Assembly (NCBI GenBank): GCA_003345555.1
Contig: PRDJ01000007.1
Coordinates: 1 to 5,822, forward strand
From: Candidatus Thorarchaeota archaeon
Lineage (GTDB): Archaea; Asgardarchaeota; Thorarchaeia; Thorarchaeales; Thorarchaeaceae
Direction: 5' to 3'
DNA: 5,822 nucleotides
Shown: piece by piece, positions 1 through 5,581 of the stretch
Position numbering within the stretch: position 1 is the stretch's first letter
How the letters are laid out: every line of letters starts with the position of its first letter
Translations under genes and position numbers: made by a program
Notes under the pieces: generated by a model
What the model saw: only the letters and a program-made list of their open reading frames with translations
What the model was told of the DNA's origin: nothing
Database searches by the model: none

Positions 1-333
1 ACTCAGGAGCTCATCATGTTCTTCGGGGCATTAGCAATGATTCTCCCTGCGGCGTTTGCGGTTGGAACCAGGGCAAACTGCCGATACATATGCTGGATGG
101 CACCGATCATGATCGCGGGGACAGCCCTTCGAAAGCGAGCCGGATGGGCCGCGTTACATCTGGAAGCACATACAGAACTGTGCGAACAGTGCGGGACCTG
201 CAATAAGAGCTGTCCTATTAACCTTGACGTGATGGAAAGAGTACTAGAGGGTGAACTCTACCATCGGGAATGCATCCTCTGTGGTAGCTGCATTGACGCG
301 TGTCCACACAAGGCTATCACTTACGCCATATGA
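1..333 (+). CDS. 4Fe-4S binding protein, NapH/MauN/polyferredoxin-like membrane protein; C-terminal part only (5'-truncated by window edge)
   Basis: Frame is open from base 1 (ACT CAG GAG CTC ATC ATG...) to TGA at 331-333. A hydrophobic segment (MFFGALAMILPAAFAVG) is followed by CRYICW (CxxxCP-like motif of the NapH/MauN family) and two ferredoxin motifs, CEQCGTCNKSCP and CILCGSCIDACP. Confidence 0.85.
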   Translation, partial: TQELIMFFGALAMILPAAFAVGTRANCRYICWMAPIMIAGTALRKRAGWAALHLEAHTELCEQCGTCNKSCPINLDVMERVLEGELYHRECILCGSCIDACPHKAITYAI

Positions 334-615: not shown

Positions 616-655
616 AAGAAAGAAACCGAGCTGGCAGTACGCAGACTGCCAACTC
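616..655 (-). terminator. Putative intrinsic terminator of the thiolase-DUF35 operon
   Basis: Stem GAG-C-TGGCAGT (628-638) / ACTGCCA-A-CTC (645-655) has 10 pairs, one mismatch and a 6-nt loop. It begins 11 nt after the DUF35 stop and is followed on the minus strand by GGTTTCTTTCTT (pyrimidine/U-rich tract, 627-616). Confidence 0.55.
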
Positions 656-666
656 TAGGATTGGAC

Positions 667-1392
667 TCATTTGAGAGTCTTGACCCACTCATAGACAGGA
701 GCACAAAGTTCCTTGATGCGCTCCTTCTCCGGGTTCATCGGTCCCGGCTTCCAGCCATCTGCCGGTTCGAAGTGAAAGTCGGTGATAACCCCACGTCTTT
801 CCTCCTTCGGTGCCCAGACGACCTTGACTGGCATCTTGAACTCGGGATCCCAAGGCTTCACACCTCTTAGCTCATTCGCTATGGCGGTCTTGCATCCGTC
901 CACGACCACATAGGCCAGCACGAATGGCAATCTCTTGAGCGATGATTTCCCGCTCCAGCCCGCGATAGTAAACGTATGCACGTGCCCCTGAGGCTCTAGA
1001 CGAACCCAGTCAGTGCGCTGGAGTTCTTCATCAAGCCGCCAGCAGTTTACCCTTGGCGGGAAGAACTTGTCCCCACACCTTGGACATTGTGTGCCCCATA
1101 GCTCTCCGTCAAGAAAGCCGCGTCCCATCTTCGATAGCTCTGCCAGCTTCCAGTAGTACAATTGATCATAGTGCAAATCGATCAAGAGCTGCTGTTCTTT
1201 GGAGGACCATTCGTAACCCGCAAAGTGAAAGCCAACTTCCTTGACGTCGCCGCGAAAGTCATTTGTATGCTTGTCATCGTATTCAACCTTCAAGGGGATT
1301 GGATGCATACGTGGATCGACTGCCTTCTTCGGGGCAGGCTCTGGACGAGGAGCTGGCTTCTTCTCTGGAGCCTTCTGTGTCTTCTTGCTCAT
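667..1392 (-). CDS. DUF35-family Zn-ribbon/OB-fold protein (thiolase partner, ChsH2-C/BbsA-like) with N-terminal extension, 241 aa
   Basis: LWGTQCPRCGDKFFPPRVNC rubredoxin-like ribbon, followed by the OB-fold signature W-x-x-L-x-x-x-G-x-V-x-TFT...PFVLAYVVVDG...MPVKVVW...EERRGVITDFHFEP. It lies directly downstream of a thiolase-fold gene, the usual DUF35 context. ATG at 1392-1390, TGA at 669-667. Confidence 0.9.
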   Translation of the reverse strand: MSKKTQKAPEKKPAPRPEPAPKKAVDPRMHPIPLKVEYDDKHTNDFRGDVKEVGFHFAGYEWSSKEQQLLIDLHYDQLYYWKLAELSKMGRGFLDGELWGTQCPRCGDKFFPPRVNCWRLDEELQRTDWVRLEPQGHVHTFTIAGWSGKSSLKRLPFVLAYVVVDGCKTAIANELRGVKPWDPEFKMPVKVVWAPKEERRGVITDFHFEPADGWKPGPMNPEKERIKELCAPVYEWVKTLK

Positions 1393-1395
1393 TTC

Positions 1396-2658
1396 CTACG
1401 GCCTCCTGAAAATGAAGTTCGAAATGCTTGTCCCCGTGCCTGCGTGGCTGTTGACTAGGCCAGTGTTTGCATTCTTGACATAGGTCTTCGAACTTCGGTG
1501 TTTCTTTGGCGTCAAATCAGTGAGTTGATAGTAGCATTCCACGGCAGACATGATACCGGTGGCTCCCACAGGATGTCCATAACCCATCAGACCTCCACCT
1601 GGATTGACCGGAAGGTCCCCGCCCATGAACGTGCGCTTCTCGCGTACGAACTCTCTGATGTTGTCCTTGTTGCACCAGTGAAGTGCTTTGTATATCTGGA
1701 CTTCAGAGCTGCTAAATGCGTCGTGAATCTCCGCCACATCGATTGACTTCAGTGCCTTGTCGTATTCGATGCCAGCCATGTCATACGCATCTTCACCAGA
1801 TTTCCTACATGCGGCGAACTCGGTCATATCAGGGTAGCCTTCACCATACATTTCTGTCCACCCCGGAAAGTTGAGTCTGTCACCAGCTCGTATCGTACAA
1901 CTGCTGAGACCAGCCCCATCGATTACGACGTATCTGCCGTCTGCGTGCTTCTTCGCCCATTCTTCGCTCGTGATAAGACAGAATGCGCCGCCACGGCTCA
2001 TGAGGCAGCAGTCATAGCGCTTGAGTGGATAGCTCATCAACCTGCTCTTCATGACGTCATCTATTGTGAGATCTCTTTTGTATTGCTGATACTCGCCACG
2101 GTACCATTGAGACTTTTCGTTGTCAACAGCGTTATTCCGGTTCTTCACTGCAGCGAGCGCAAAGTCCTCCTCAGTGAGACCGTTTTCTTTCATGAACTTG
2201 TGAGCCATCGCTGCGTAGTAAATCGGATAGATGCCGCCTGCAAGCGCCTCGTATCGAGTATCCGACGCGAGCGCAATGAATTCGGAGCCTTGTGATTGAC
2301 TGACATTGTCCATGGTTTCCCATCCGGCTACGCCGATCACATCGAACATACCCGACTTTACTGCTAGGAAAGCCGCGTACAATGCTGACCCTCCCGTGTT
2401 ACCTCCGTTCTCTATACGGAAATGCGGCACACCCACGAGTCCCAGATGATCATGCACAATCCACTCCGGAGCAAGCTGCTTGCCGAAGTGGACAGAAAAG
2501 TGAGAGTAGACCATGAACTGCAAATTCCTGAGATGGAAGTCAGGGATGTCATGCTGTGTTTCCACAATGCAGTTCGCAATCATTGACTCAGGTTCCAAGT
2601 GCATGGGGTAATCAAAGGGGGTAGCTGCGCCGCCAGCTAGACAGACTCGACGACTCAT
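1396..2658 (-). CDS. Thiolase-fold protein of the SCP2/archaeal (lipid-transfer-protein-like) type, lacking the catalytic cysteines, 420 aa
   Basis: Family motifs: RIENGGNTGGSA (nucleophile loop), AGWETM, AAVKNRNNA, DVMKSRLMSYPL..YDCC, DVAEIHDAF, PVNPGGGLMGYGHPVGATG, and C-terminal LVNSHAGTG. ATG at 2658-2656, TAG at 1398-1396. Confidence 0.92.
   Translation of the reverse strand: MSRRVCLAGGAATPFDYPMHLEPESMIANCIVETQHDIPDFHLRNLQFMVYSHFSVHFGKQLAPEWIVHDHLGLVGVPHFRIENGGNTGGSALYAAFLAVKSGMFDVIGVAGWETMDNVSQSQGSEFIALASDTRYEALAGGIYPIYYAAMAHKFMKENGLTEEDFALAAVKNRNNAVDNEKSQWYRGEYQQYKRDLTIDDVMKSRLMSYPLKRYDCCLMSRGGAFCLITSEEWAKKHADGRYVVIDGAGLSSCTIRAGDRLNFPGWTEMYGEGYPDMTEFAACRKSGEDAYDMAGIEYDKALKSIDVAEIHDAFSSSEVQIYKALHWCNKDNIREFVREKRTFMGGDLPVNPGGGLMGYGHPVGATGIMSAVECYYQLTDLTPKKHRSSKTYVKNANTGLVNSHAGTGTSISNFIFRRP
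1402..1407 (-). promoter_or_regulatory. Shine-Dalgarno AGGAGG for the DUF35 gene, embedded in the last codons of the thiolase gene
   Basis: Minus strand reads TTC AGGAGG CCG TAG GAA ATG. AGGAGG lies 9 nt before the ATG at 1392, which supports that start and translational coupling. Confidence 0.6.
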
Positions 2659-2818
2659 CTTTGATCCTGTTTTCCCCTAGGCGACCGTCATAACTACTCG
2701 GTCGTTACGATGCGAGTCGAGGGAAGGTGGTACTTAACAGCTTCGGATGGCTTCGCGAATCACCAGCTTTATGGGCTTTGAGTTGGCAGAACCAACCTAT
2801 CCTGGAGAGGAGTCATGC

Positions 2819-3628
2819 ATGGAAGAAAGAAGCGTCGCAGACCTTGATGACTTGGCCAAGACTTCCCTCGCAACCCTGTATGTCCGAGCCAAAGAGACCC
2901 AAAGTCAGAATCCCATCGTGCGAGACCCGAAAGCTGTGGAAATGGTGGAGAAGATTGGATTCGACTTCCGGGAAGTAGCAAGGAAGTTCCACAAACACGA
3001 TCTCATATGCACCGCGATGAGAGTGAGGCGCTTTGACGAATACGTTCAGGATTTCCTTGCAAGATTCCCAAATGGAGTGGTCGTGAGTATAGGTTGCGGT
3101 TTGGACGATCGCTTCAGTCGCATCGACAACGGGCAGGTCATCTTCTATGACCTCGATTTCCCGGGGGTGATTGCCATGCGCAGAAGGTTCCTAACAGAAT
3201 CAGCCCGCAACCACTGCATCCCATCCTCTGCCCAAGACTTCACTTGGATGAACACACTCGAAACACTCAAACCCCGACCCTTCCTGTTCATTGCGGAGGG
3301 GGTCTTCCAGTATTTTTCGGAGGATGAGGTGAAGACCTTGATAGAGCAGCTCAGAAGTCGATTCCCCGGAGCAGAGATGGCCTTTGATGTCTGCAATACG
3401 TACATGGTCAAGAGAATGTCCCATCACAGTGCTCTGAAAGAAACGGAGGCAAGCCTTCGATGGGGAATCAAAGACAGCCGGGACATTGAGATTCTCTGTC
3501 CAGGCGTCAAGTTCTTGGATGATTGGTACTACTCCGATAAGTGGGAACGAAAACTAGGATTGTTCAATCTGGTGCTCAGGGTGCCGTTCTTCAAGAAGAT
3601 GATGTGGGCCGTTCGATACCAACTATGA
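2819..3628 (+). CDS. Class I SAM-dependent methyltransferase, TcmP/YktD/leucine-carboxyl-methyltransferase (LCM) family
   Basis: Motifs TSLATLYVRAKE, R..RFDEYV..FL, VVSIGCGLDDRF (motif I), FYDLDFP, FLFIAEGVFQYF and MAFD. The ORF track starts at 2747, but the ATG at 2819 (MEERSV...) follows GGAGAGGAG at 2804-2812 and better fits the family N-terminus, so it is the preferred start (inference). Confidence 0.88.
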   Translation: MEERSVADLDDLAKTSLATLYVRAKETQSQNPIVRDPKAVEMVEKIGFDFREVARKFHKHDLICTAMRVRRFDEYVQDFLARFPNGVVVSIGCGLDDRFSRIDNGQVIFYDLDFPGVIAMRRRFLTESARNHCIPSSAQDFTWMNTLETLKPRPFLFIAEGVFQYFSEDEVKTLIEQLRSRFPGAEMAFDVCNTYMVKRMSHHSALKETEASLRWGIKDSRDIEILCPGVKFLDDWYYSDKWERKLGLFNLVLRVPFFKKMMWAVRYQL

Positions 3629-3638
3629 AGCAGCTGAA

Positions 3639-4175
3639 TCAATGCTCCTTCCACCCGAGGCTTCTGAGCTCTGTTGACTCAAGATAGCTGTCCATCGCGA
3701 ACATGGTGAGAGTCCTATCAACTGCGGGCTTGTGCCTGAGGAAGTCGACAATGAAGTGGTTGATTTCATCAATGTCCCTAGCTCGGATTTTCAATAGCAC
3801 ATCGTACTCGCCGCTGAGGACATGAACATCCTGAACAAGTGGATGCTGCGCGATATCTTTGCAGAAGTCTCTTTGGGACAGCATTCCTTCCTGACCTGGA
3901 GCATAGTACCTTATTCTGATGAGCACGAAAGCAAGGGTCTGTCGGGATAGCTTGCCAGAGTCAAGTATGGCAGTGTATTTCTTGATGATACCAGAGCTTT
4001 CGAGCGCCTTGATCCTTGCATGAACTGTCGAGATTCCCTTGTCAACTTCCTTCGAGATTTCCATGATGCTCATCTTGCAGTTCTCTTGTAGCAACTGGAG
4101 TATTCTGATGTCTGTCTCGTCAAGTTCAGTTGCGCTTGGTGTCATAGACGACTTCTCCGAAATTCTTTCGGCCAT
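3639..4175 (-). CDS. Lrp/AsnC family transcriptional regulator
   Basis: N-terminal wHTH LDETDIRILQLLQENCKMSIMEISKEVDKGISTVHARIKALESSGIIKKYTAILD. RAM domain contains VHVLSGEYDVLLKI and VDRTLT. An alternative start at 4145 (MTPS...) is possible. Confidence 0.93.
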   Translation of the reverse strand: MAERISEKSSMTPSATELDETDIRILQLLQENCKMSIMEISKEVDKGISTVHARIKALESSGIIKKYTAILDSGKLSRQTLAFVLIRIRYYAPGQEGMLSQRDFCKDIAQHPLVQDVHVLSGEYDVLLKIRARDIDEINHFIVDFLRHKPAVDRTLTMFAMDSYLESTELRSLGWKEH

Positions 4176-4282: not shown

Positions 4283-5581
4283 ATGACTGAACCTGGACAG
4301 AAGCCAGAATTCCTCAGACTCCTCTTCACCACTCCACTGGGTACTACTCGCTCTGTTGAAGTCCGCTATGATACGCTAGACGAAGTAGCCAGAGATGGAG
4401 TGTACTTTGATGGTTCATCGATTCCGGGATATGCTGATGTCAACTCAAGTGACTTGCAGTTGCGTCCAGCTACAGGCACACCCTTGACTGAGCCATGGGA
4501 TACAAGGGCAGCAATTCAACTCTGCAGTGTATACGAAGCCACAGGGGAACCACACCCGTGTGATCCCAGAGAGGTCCTGAGAAAGGTACTAGACGAAGGC
4601 TCCAAGCGAGGACTGTATCTGAAGGCAGGTCCTGAAATCGAGTTCTTCTTGGTTATCGTGTCACAAGACCGTCGCATTTCTCCAGCAGACCAAGGGGGAT
4701 ACTATGCTACCCGACCGGCAGACGGTGGACTTGAGCTCAGGAGGGAGATGATGACGTCTCTCACCGGATTGGGGATTCCCACGACTTCGCATCATCACGA
4801 GGTCGCATCGGGTCAGCACGAGATTGGTCTTGCCTTTGACTCGGCAATGGAGATAGCAGACCGCGTTCTCCTAGCAAGACTTGCGATTGCAGAAATTGCT
4901 TACTCGAAGGGCTGCATGGCGACATTCATGCCCAAGCCATTTGCGGAGAGAAACGGCAGCGGCATGCATATACATCAGAGTCTCTGGGACGGCAAAGGGA
5001 CAAACCTGTTCGCCAATGAATTACCGGGCACGGTCTCGGAAATGGCTCACCACTATGTCGCGGGTATAATGAAACACGCACCAGCTTTGGCAGCTATTGT
5101 CGCGCCCACGGTGAACTCATTCAAGAGACTAAGGCCAGGGTTTGAAGCGCCAACGCGCATCGCATGGGGACCGAGAAACAGGACGACAATGATCAGAGTC
5201 CCAGAGTTCGACGGTTCTGATGAAAAGGCAAGGATTGAATTCAGATGTCCAGATCCTTCATGTAGTCCACACCTTGCTCTTGCGGCGGTCATGGCGGCCG
5301 GTCTTGATGGAATATCTCACGGGCTTGAGCCACCAGAACCCACATGCGAAGACCTGTACCATACTGAGGACAAGACGCCTTCTCTTCCGGAGTCTCTGAT
5401 TCAAGCGCTGCATTATCTGGAAGAAGATGACACCCTAAAGCAAGCGTTGGGAGAGAGAATCGTAGGAAGCATCATCAAGTCTCGCACTGCAGAGTGGTAC
5501 GAGTATCTGAAGACTGCGGGAAAGTCGGGCGTTGTCGACATAACAGACTGGGAGATCGATAAGTACCTGCGAGCTAACTAG
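4283..5581 (+). CDS. glnA: Glutamine synthetase type I (GSI-alpha-like), 432 aa
   Basis: FDGSS (D43), GPEIEFF (E118/E120), DQGGYY, HHHEVASGQHEI (E173/E180), FMPKPF..RNGSGMHIHQSL, NSFKRL.PGFEAP (R282, flap E288), WGPRNRTTMIRVP, RIEFRCPDP and C-terminal TDWEIDKYL. The canonical metal, glutamate and ammonium-site residues checked are present. Confidence 0.93.
   Translation: MTEPGQKPEFLRLLFTTPLGTTRSVEVRYDTLDEVARDGVYFDGSSIPGYADVNSSDLQLRPATGTPLTEPWDTRAAIQLCSVYEATGEPHPCDPREVLRKVLDEGSKRGLYLKAGPEIEFFLVIVSQDRRISPADQGGYYATRPADGGLELRREMMTSLTGLGIPTTSHHHEVASGQHEIGLAFDSAMEIADRVLLARLAIAEIAYSKGCMATFMPKPFAERNGSGMHIHQSLWDGKGTNLFANELPGTVSEMAHHYVAGIMKHAPALAAIVAPTVNSFKRLRPGFEAPTRIAWGPRNRTTMIRVPEFDGSDEKARIEFRCPDPSCSPHLALAAVMAAGLDGISHGLEPPEPTCEDLYHTEDKTPSLPESLIQALHYLEEDDTLKQALGERIVGSIIKSRTAEWYEYLKTAGKSGVVDITDWEIDKYLRAN

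Follow-up and report, generated by a model that had tools for sequence, protein, structure and literature searches.

The window analysed here is an entire 5,822-bp contig (PRDJ01000007.1, G000:C7) of a Candidatus Thorarchaeota genome (2.28 Mb, 93% complete), and its closest relatives are likewise Candidatus Thorarchaeota, with 95% protein identity. It carries on the minus strand a pair of adjacent genes, one encoding a 420-amino-acid (aa) thiolase-fold subunit (1396-2658; assigned by open reading frame (ORF) call, Pfam, and an AlphaFold2 (AF2) model searched with Foldseek) and the other a long, 241-aa DUF35 subunit (667-1392; assigned by ORF call, genome scan and fold). Both reading frames are intact, and the pair belongs to a widespread family that probably performs a non-thiolase reaction on a short acyl-coenzyme A (acyl-CoA). 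At their junction the minus strand reads TTC AGG AGG CCG TAG gaa ATG, the stop codon of the thiolase-like gene (1398-1396) being followed after a gap of 3 nt (1395-1393) by the ATG of the DUF35 gene (1392-1390). An AGGAGG (1402-1407, minus strand) lies 9 nt before this ATG, within the final codons of the thiolase-like gene, a placement that fits translational coupling of the two genes. A terminator-like hairpin with a T-rich tract (618-655, minus strand) was found 12 nt past the DUF35 stop codon; the hairpin (655-628, minus strand) has 11 pairs, six of them G-C, and is followed by GGTTTCTTTC. Because the window holds five terminator-like sites against 3.9 ± 2.2 in shuffled sequences, and hence no excess, the hairpin alone is weak, suggestive evidence. 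On the other side, an 88-bp divergent intergenic region (2659-2746), the presumed promoter region judging from the ORF positions, precedes a gene on the opposite strand; a sigma-70 promoter scan is inapplicable to an archaeon and was disregarded. The spacing, the embedded AGGAGG, the divergent gene and the hairpin had been listed in an earlier note made from this DNA, and all could be read directly in the sequence.

In the Pfam scan, the 420-aa protein matched Thiolase_C_1 (92.5 bits), Thiolase_N (29.5 bits) and Thiolase_C (28.5 bits). Its AF2 model (predicted local distance difference test score (pLDDT) 82) had the archaeal thiolases 6esq and 7yvy as top Foldseek matches, with template-modelling (TM) scores of 0.82-0.93, and the protein has the thiolase superfamily fold with its N and C domains and five-layer alpha-beta-alpha-beta-alpha architecture. 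The phmmer alignments to 7yvy and 6esq were ungapped around the active-site loops. There, RIENGGNTGGSAL aligned with KIEAACASGGAA of 7yvy and RVEAACASGSLA of 6esq, placing Gly86 (2403-2401, minus strand, as are all residue positions below) where the nucleophilic Cys stands; the nucleophile loop ENGGNTGG is opposite EAACASGG and lacks the Cys of the E-x-A-C-x-S-G motif of catalytic thiolases. AEIHDAFSS aligned with AEVHDCFAI of 6esq, so that the acid/base Cys of SCP2-type enzymes is replaced by Ala314 (1719-1717). In the C-terminal loop, classical thiolases have their acid/base Cys and archaeal thiolases the motif N-[IV]-G-G. Here the loop reads N-S-H-A-G-T-G (S404-H405 at 1449-1444), so neither form of acid/base Cys (HDCF or CxG) is present. 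These alignments bear out the earlier description of the thiolase as Cys-less. In contrast to the cysteines, both thiolase histidines are retained, H312 of HDxF (1725-1723) and H362 of GHPxGATG (1575-1573). H362 was invariant in the family alignment (A1), and H312 was found in nearly all members, missing from three divergent ones. The family also has insertions of about 8 and 14 residues relative to archaeal thiolases.

For the partner, OB_ChsH2_C (26.6 bits, cut-off 27.1) and zf-ChsH2 (22.4 bits, cut-off 23.2) fell just under their Pfam thresholds, and the DUF35 assignment rests on a whole-genome scan (29.4 bits, above cut-off) and on the fold, an OB fold preceded by a rubredoxin-like ribbon (PF01796 and PF12172). 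The AF2 model (pLDDT 87.5) places a beta-strand N-terminal extension at about residues 40-82, followed by a helix, the zinc ribbon, the OB fold and a C-terminal helix (221-240). Residues 1-27 (1312-1392, minus strand) form a Lys/Pro/Ala-rich low-complexity tail; such a tail was longer in two orthologues (L038 and L089) and absent from most others. In Foldseek, the DUF35 core of ~130 residues matched all solved DUF35 chains (E 1e-7 to 4e-5), with the partners of the aldolase Sal, an archaeal thiolase and the aldolase Ltp2 as best matches, whereas the extensions had no solved counterpart. The ribbon, CPRC...CWRLDEE, contains C103 (1086-1084), C106 (1077-1075), C117 (1044-1042), W118 (1041-1039) and E122 (1029-1027), that is, three Cys and a Glu in place of the fourth zinc Cys, and thus departs from the four-Cys site C-x2-C-x10-C-x2-C. 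Across the 23 long partners of a second alignment (A2), C103, C106, C117 and W118 were invariant and position 122 was Cys in 22, with Glu in the window protein. The ribbon of the long partners is accordingly C-x2-C-x10-C-W-x3-C instead of the canonical form ending in C-x2-C, and Asp or Glu at the last zinc Cys is confined to a Thorarchaeota subclade. In Thermoplasmatales and bacteria the partner is short (148-169 aa) and its ribbon has the canonical four-Cys form CxxC...CxxC. In a library of 1.84 billion representatives, relatives of the long DUF35 were few, five passing E <= 1e-30 and 38 passing E <= 1e-10, and a search for longer proteins, which is weak evidence on this point, found no fused forms.

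A homologue search over 5.8 billion proteins returned ~110 full-length homologues of the thiolase-like protein with 83% to 38% identity. All of them had G-G at the nucleophile loop, nearly all also carried HDA[FY] and SH[AG]GTG, and the same signature was seen in about 90 copies retrieved from genomes together with their flanking genes. The same substitutions occurred in homologues across at least eight phyla. Relative to the nearest relative (L049), the ratio of non-synonymous to synonymous substitution rates (dN/dS) came to 0.022 (thiolase-like gene) and 0.038 (DUF35 gene), at dS >1, and the pair is under strong purifying selection. The two signs of decay that the earlier note had asked for, deviations unique to this genome and an elevated dN/dS, were looked for and not seen. 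Its proposal of a functional module instead of decay is upheld, in the sense of a function other than thiolysis, by the purifying selection, the conservation across phyla and the lack of a characterised match. Its further idea that both subunits deviate in parallel did not hold up in the neighbourhood survey: since the loss represented by E122 is confined to a Thorarchaeota subclade, whereas the Cys change of the thiolase-like protein is family-wide, the two deviations do not co-vary. In short, it is the thiolase change that defines the family, and the lost zinc Cys is a late, local event. One orthologue from the same family (G143:C8:10502-11776, L013) contained a single in-frame TAG.

In a maximum-likelihood tree, whose alignment still contained the trait columns, the 45 sampled members formed one clade (SH-aLRT 99), apart from Cys-bearing thiolase/DUF35 paralogues and from other, independently Cys-less paralogues. 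This GG clade was found in Thorarchaeota, Hodarchaeota, other Asgard archaea, Thermoplasmatota, Bathyarchaeia, Methanolliviera and Thermoproteota, and in bacteria in Verrucomicrobiota, Acidobacteriota, Bacillota, Chloroflexota and one deltaproteobacterium. More than 590 loci were counted in a species-representative genome set; in a sample of the Asgard phylum the family occurred in 34 of 151 genomes, and in 20 of the 26 from the family to which the window belongs. The Thermoplasmatota copies (L065-L090) were 67-71% identical to the window protein and nested beside the Thorarchaeota after a stem of 0.98 substitutions per site, a pattern that suggests transfer between the phyla. Near-identical copies on short contigs binned as Deferrimicrobium and as Thermodesulfobacteriota may be mis-binned. 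The best NCBIfam model was NF004982 (PRK06365, 'thiolase domain-containing protein'), on which the window protein scored 319 bits against a cut-off of 695; a Peptococcaceae member of the clade (P0106) reached 709.8 bits. The upper scorers were bacterial and Thermoplasmatales members with the same GG, HDA[FY] and SHAGTG signature, and the whole ENGGNTGG subclade of Thorarchaeota, Hodarchaeota and Thermoplasmatota fell far under the cut-off. Because the window protein lies below a threshold that another member of its clade passes, it belongs to a sister subfamily, and the sequence family is already partly modelled by PRK06365, a model that names no function. No characterised member of the clade was found in NCBIfam or in the literature searched, in which subscription journals were poorly covered. 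The earlier label 'undescribed' thus stands as far as characterised matches are concerned and needs qualification where PRK06365 and the known combination of a Gly with a DUF35 partner in Ltp2 and Sal are concerned.

To identify residues specific to the family, 26 GG-family members were compared with five Cys-bearing paralogues. F54, H57, G85, G86, F127, I128, A129, Y144, R257 and H405 were invariant in all 26 and absent from the five paralogues; Y275, also absent from the paralogues, was present in 25 of the 26. Several of these residues, H57, Y144, R257 and H405 among them, are polar and, judging by homology, probably belong to stretches bordering the active site of SCP2-type enzymes. The spacing between Y144 and Y148 equals that between Gln161 and Tyr165 in CtSal, onto which they may map, and H405 would lie within the loop in which classical thiolases hold their acid/base Cys. 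Taken with the kept histidines, the new invariant polar residues point to catalysis of another kind and not to a dead scaffold; a re-tooled active site explains the pattern better than an inactive one.

In the Thorarchaeota-like, Thermoplasmatota-type and acidophilic Thermoplasmatales loci, the gene context was compared over a range of three genes upstream and four genes downstream. A DUF35 gene directly followed the thiolase-like gene in nearly every locus with room for it, with gaps of -11 to +12 nt; the exceptions, under simple ORF calling, were a few loci without a called partner and one called gap of 240 nt. Among 19 loci of Thorarchaeota-like relatives (nine of which had three or more called genes to either side), no gene cluster for acyl-CoA dehydrogenase, CoA ligase, CoA-transferase, 3-hydroxyacyl-CoA dehydrogenase, thiolase or mutase was found in this range, and the sole recurring synteny was with a gene pair for an Lrp-type regulator and glutamine synthetase (Lrp-GlnA). 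The earlier note had called the operon stand-alone, which applies to Thorarchaeota only; linkage to acyl-CoA genes was seen in Thermoplasmatota, in Hodarchaeota, in Bathyarchaeia and in bacteria. Of the 26 Thermoplasmatota-type loci, 12 contained an acetyl-CoA-synthetase-like ligase (684 bits on an acetate-CoA ligase subfamily model, 503 bits on acetoacetate-CoA ligase) and another 10 a fused family-I CoA-transferase. In 16 of these loci the ligase or transferase gene was the immediate upstream neighbour, 60-270 nt from the pair and in the same orientation; eight loci had a butyryl-CoA-dehydrogenase-like acyl-CoA dehydrogenase near the pair, and a carboxyltransferase gene recurred. In acidophilic Thermoplasmatales, 3-hydroxyacyl-CoA dehydrogenase was present in 8/8 loci and a classical thiolase in 6/8. 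An acetoacetate-CoA ligase gene (TIGR01217, 746 bits, cut-off 521) lay directly downstream of the pair in a Hodarchaeota locus (L092). In Bathyarchaeia a second, Cys-bearing thiolase/DUF35 pair followed, and methylmalonyl-CoA-mutase-like genes lay upstream, near the pair in three of six loci; such a gene was also near the pair in one Chloroflexota locus. Verrucomicrobiota, Acidobacteriota and Peptococcaceae had tight operons of ligase, thiolase-like, DUF35 and dehydrogenase genes. The deltaproteobacterial locus (L107) ran from dehydrogenase, thiolase-like and DUF35 genes through MaoC hydratase and 3-hydroxyacyl-CoA dehydrogenase to a second thiolase-like gene, a DUF35 gene and an aldehyde:ferredoxin oxidoreductase; a second gene for the latter enzyme adjoined the pair in L045, and beta-keto acid cleavage enzyme genes were near it in L106 and L089. 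The common denominator of these contexts is short-chain (about C4) acyl-CoA metabolism. In the Asgard family f13 (L047:7321-10821 and L048:8784-12297), two tandem thiolase/DUF35 pairs were observed, both Cys-less; one belongs to the GG family and the other has EAVGATGG with a YD[IM]S motif that recalls the Tyr motif of Ltp2.

Within the window, the gene divergent from the operon encodes an LCM/TIGR00027-type S-adenosylmethionine-dependent methyltransferase (2747-3628, plus strand); in the first survey of 18 related Asgard loci, none had this gene beside the pair. It is followed by genes that the family scan identified as an Lrp/AsnC regulator (3639-4175, minus strand) and a type I glutamine synthetase (4283-5581, plus strand), and this Lrp-GlnA pair also adjoins the thiolase-like gene in six genomes of the same family (L031, L033, L035, L049, L050 and L053). 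No HMG-CoA synthase, hydratase or CoA ligase gene was found within the 5.8-kb window, in line with the earlier reading; the local context is short because the window is the entire contig. The third-codon-position GC contents of the pair (0.59 and 0.62) were not higher than those of its neighbours (0.52-0.62) and lend no support to high expression, and an Rfam scan of the window gave no matches. Near-identical DNA occurred in wetland metagenomes of two studies, and in one wetland metatranscriptome two 151-nt contigs were identical to 1575-1855, inside the thiolase-like gene, a weak hint of its transcription; window parts without such cover carry no information on silence. At the other end, the contig edge truncates a NapH/MauN-like polyferredoxin gene (two 4Fe-4S motifs), whose 3' end occupies positions 1-333 (plus strand).

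Elsewhere in the same genome, three further thiolase/DUF35 pairs bring the total to four. One Cys-bearing pair lies on contig C2 directly after a 354-aa gene that was read, without a family-library scan, as HMG-CoA synthase, and another on C58 within a beta-oxidation cluster. Contig C22 (L130:455-5582, minus strand) holds a second Cys-less thiolase-like gene with the loop ETGPSAGS and with HDAF and GHP kept; on one strand, genes for a biotin-carrier protein and a PYC_OADA/HMGL-like carboxyltransferase stand before it, and those for a short DUF35 and an acyl-CoA dehydrogenase come after it. Since the C22 protein falls outside the GG clade in the tree, its loss of Cys was independent. C56 encodes a classical beta-oxidation trio that includes a classical thiolase. 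No canonical HMG-CoA lyase scored above cut-off in the genome, an acetoacetate-CoA-transferase query had no match, and an acetoacetate-CoA-ligase query hit a generic AMP-ligase weakly, at 39 bits. A speculative role of the pair as an HMG-CoA lyase analogue was considered with these results and not adopted as the leading reading. About nine aldehyde:ferredoxin oxidoreductase paralogues were strong phmmer matches (E <= 1e-20). A 1221-aa fusion of a complete aldehyde:ferredoxin oxidoreductase (AFOR_N and AFOR_C) with a likewise complete AMP-binding acyl-CoA/adenylate ligase was also observed (C36:96080-99745, L129:581-4246, minus strand), an unusual arrangement that suggests coupled acid activation and aldehyde chemistry.

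We infer complex formation, reaction type, residue roles and substrate of the pair as follows. By analogy with every solved thiolase-type/DUF35 complex, the two subunits probably form an alpha2-beta2 heterocomplex. Our tentative reading is that this complex acts as a heteromeric acyl-CoA carbon-carbon lyase of (retro-)aldol type on a short 3-hydroxyacyl-CoA, analogous to Ltp2 and Sal with different catalytic residues. It was rated likeliest because the enolate-stabilising histidines are kept, the residues of covalent catalysis are lost, and a Gly stands where Ltp2 and Sal have Gly. The complex would bind a short acyl-CoA, and a carbon-carbon bond would be made or broken through an acyl-CoA enolate, without a covalent acyl-cysteine. 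The reaction could be a reversible retro-aldol cleavage of 3-hydroxyacyl-CoA to acetyl-CoA and an aldehyde or ketone, in which H312 and H362 would polarise the thioester and stabilise the enolate. H405 and/or Y144 might serve as acid/base, and R257 and H57 as substrate contacts. The DUF35 ribbon loop (C-x2-C...C-W-x3-C/E), together with the extensions, may shape the wall of the acyl pocket. This reading concerns the mode of action and not membership of the Ltp2/Sal group, as the protein clusters with true thiolases.

Several observations weigh against such a lyase. The catalytic Tyr of Ltp2 and Sal (YDHF/YDCY) is His in the window protein, and the position of the acid Cys304 of Sal is Ala, so that the known aldolase mechanism is not simply transferable. 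True archaeal thiolases (124 bits, Foldseek ranks 1-2) resemble the protein more closely in sequence and fold than do Ltp2 (60 bits, rank 28) and Sal (rank 33). In Thorarchaeota, neither a hydratase gene nor one for aldehyde oxidation adjoins the pair, and aldehyde:ferredoxin oxidoreductase adjacency was seen in two of about 98 loci, in genomes rich in such paralogues. The putative clustering of the new invariant residues at the active site is deduced from their sequence positions. Finally, the context of acetoacetate-CoA ligase, CoA-transferase, 3-hydroxyacyl-CoA dehydrogenase and beta-keto acid cleavage genes suits the role of an acetoacetyl-CoA thiolase equally well.

That last point leads to an enzyme that would cleave or form acetoacetyl-CoA, or another 3-ketoacyl-CoA, without an enzyme Cys, for example through direct attack by the thiolate of a second CoA in a ternary complex, the long DUF35 providing the second CoA site. 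We regard this as unlikely, although genuine archaeal acetoacetyl-CoA thiolases are the closest relatives by sequence and fold. The gene context speaks for it, being centred on the four-carbon node at which one expects a thiolase. It comprises the ligase directly downstream of the pair in L092, the fused CoA-transferase or acetyl-CoA-synthetase-like ligase upstream in 22/26 Thermoplasmatota-type loci, the 3-hydroxyacyl-CoA dehydrogenase in all eight acidophilic Thermoplasmatales loci, and the beta-keto acid cleavage enzymes, whose products include acetoacetate, in L106 and L089. A CoA site shared between enzymes in the archaeal thiolase/HMG-CoA synthase/DUF35 complex, cited in PMC12329534, is also in its favour. 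However, no thiolase is known to work without its nucleophilic Cys, and Cys-to-Ala/Ser variants are inactive forms according to the PDB titles of 3zbk and 3zbl. The classical or Cys-bearing thiolases that often stand beside the pair (6/8 Thermoplasmatales loci; the Bathyarchaeia tandems) argue for a different job, and the genome is already supplied with a classical thiolase (C56) and two Cys-bearing pairs (C2, C58).

The same pair of histidines could instead stabilise the enolate left after loss of CO2, in which case the pair would be a decarboxylase of a beta-carboxy acyl-CoA (malonyl-, methylmalonyl- or related). Ketosynthase domains in which the Cys is replaced by Gln (KSQ, chain-length factor) decarboxylate through an enolate-stabilising histidine pair. 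Both oxyanion-hole histidines are kept here and the nucleophile is gone, and the family-invariant Arg257 could bind the substrate carboxylate. The mutase-like genes in three of six Bathyarchaeia loci and one Chloroflexota locus, and the recurrent carboxyltransferase of Thermoplasmatota, would suit such a substrate; in most lineages, however, mutase and carboxyltransferase genes are not adjacent, and no decarboxylase of thiolase fold is known to require a DUF35 partner. The Cys-less trypanosomal SCP2-thiolase-like protein TbSLP does decarboxylate malonyl-CoA, but very slowly (kcat 0.005 per s), its authors now suspect an aldolase, and CtSal has no such activity (PMC12329534). We consider a decarboxylase improbable.

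A module without catalysis of its own, binding acyl-CoA and scaffolding, recruiting or regulating other enzymes, is doubtful as well. Both catalytic cysteines are lost, and DUF35 proteins are documented scaffolds of thiolase/HMG-CoA synthase and archaeal fatty-acid-synthase complexes (PMC12960953; bioRxiv 2024.07.05.601840); one DUF35 protein, Sso2509, acts in translation recovery (PMC6996347). The second pair in the Bathyarchaeia and f13 tandems, which is Cys-bearing in Bathyarchaeia only, could be a catalytic partner. Against this stand the very high conservation (dN/dS 0.02; 67-71% identity between Thorarchaeota and Thermoplasmatota), the retention of both active-site histidines, the new invariant polar residues, and the isolation of the pair in Thorarchaeota, where it has no adjacent catalytic partner. 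A decaying thiolase pair specific to this genome, for which only the loss of the catalytic Cys residues and of one zinc ligand would speak, is ruled out by the intact frames, the presence of the substitutions in all homologues, the dN/dS of 0.02-0.04 and the single well-supported clade. What probability the lyase and these alternatives leave belongs to something else.

The identity of the reaction matters for how archaeal metabolism is reconstructed. Automatic annotation names the window-type protein 'acetyl-CoA C-acetyltransferase', and metabolic reconstructions of Thorarchaeota, Hodarchaeota, Bathyarchaeia and Thermoplasmatota count the GG-clade protein as a thiolase. As the clade cannot act as a classical thiolase, such reconstructions overcount thiolases and miss its real reaction. 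If the lyase reading is true, the Ltp2/Sal principle would extend from steroid catabolism to the central metabolism of anaerobes, and a Cys-free biocatalyst for carbon-carbon bonds would be at hand. A bolder proposal, to which we give only a slim chance, puts a Cys-independent thiolase-fold enzyme at the acetoacetyl-CoA/3-hydroxybutyryl-CoA node of anaerobic archaea. As an aldolase, it would join acetyl-CoA with acetaldehyde or another carbonyl to 3-hydroxyacyl-CoA, bypassing the uphill Claisen condensation, and would link up with the organisms' many aldehyde:ferredoxin oxidoreductases; as a thiolase, it would let CoA attack acetoacetyl-CoA directly in a ternary complex, with the second CoA site contributed by the long DUF35. 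Either version, if true, would give the central carbon metabolism of Asgard archaea, Bathyarchaeia and Thermoplasmatota a new reaction mechanism or a new step in a pathway. Thiolase/DUF35 pairs have multiplied in Asgard archaea, with a mean of 3.8 per genome, and are discussed in bioRxiv 2024.07.05.601840 as the basis of archaeal fatty-acid synthesis and hence of the 'lipid divide'; the sections covered do not single out a Cys-less clade. The family is directly testable because it is compact and highly conserved and has clean gene contexts.

Among known systems, the steroid side-chain aldolases Ltp2-ChsH2 and CtSal-Shy (6ok1 and 9myr; PMC12329534) share with the pair a thiolase fold and a Gly in place of the nucleophilic Cys, here Gly86. 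In CtSal and TcLtp2 the backbone amide of this Gly is proposed to bind the substrate hydroxyl (PMC12329534). Their DUF35 partner is obligatory; that of the window is encoded by an adjacent, conserved gene and matches 9myr_B and 6ok1_B in fold. The variant (Cys3His) zinc ribbon of the Sal partner Shy shapes the substrate cleft (PMC12329534), and the gene logic of acyl-CoA dehydrogenase, hydratase and then lyase recurs in some relatives of the pair (L107). In contrast to these aldolases, the window protein has HDAF (HDA[FY] in nearly the whole family) instead of the Tyr motif YDHF/YDCY, keeps the GHP histidine, and has Ala314 at the position of Cys304 of Sal; by residue offset, the equivalent of Ltp2 Tyr344 would fall near H362. 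Its DUF35 is encoded on its own, as a longer polypeptide extended at both termini, rather than as a MaoC hydratase tail, its hosts are anaerobic archaea without a steroid context, and 6ok1 scored 60 bits against 124 bits for 7yvy. The 'lipid-transfer protein' models likewise gave 105-158 bits against cut-offs of 424-469, so the protein does not cluster with Ltp2 and Sal by sequence.

The archaeal thiolases 6esq and 7yvy are the nearest relatives in both sequence and structure (Foldseek alignment identity 27-28%), with the same HDxF and GHPxGATG motifs and the same order of thiolase and DUF35 genes. They differ in the nucleophilic Cys, which is Gly here, in the HDCF Cys of 6esq, which is Ala here, and in a DUF35 partner about 90 residues shorter; unlike in the archaeal mevalonate module, no HMG-CoA synthase gene adjoins the window pair, the three-gene set being encoded on C2. 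The benzoylsuccinyl-CoA thiolase BbsAB and the acyltransferases PhlABC and MucABC also combine thiolase-type with DUF35 zinc-ribbon/OB subunits of matching fold, but BbsB (by alignment) and PhlC and MucB (PMC12960953) keep the nucleophilic Cys, and PhlABC and MucABC need a third, HMG-CoA-synthase-like subunit. The Saci_1121/1120 ketothiolase/DUF35 of the archaeal fatty-acid synthase, as described in bioRxiv 2024.07.05.601840, is similarly an extra pair beside the mevalonate one, but is an active Claisen-condensing ketothiolase. Set against these systems, what is uncharacterised is the GG clade with its set of catalytic residues, its long partner and its setting in central metabolism, whereas the combination of a thiolase fold with DUF35 and Cys-less, non-thiolytic chemistry are known already.

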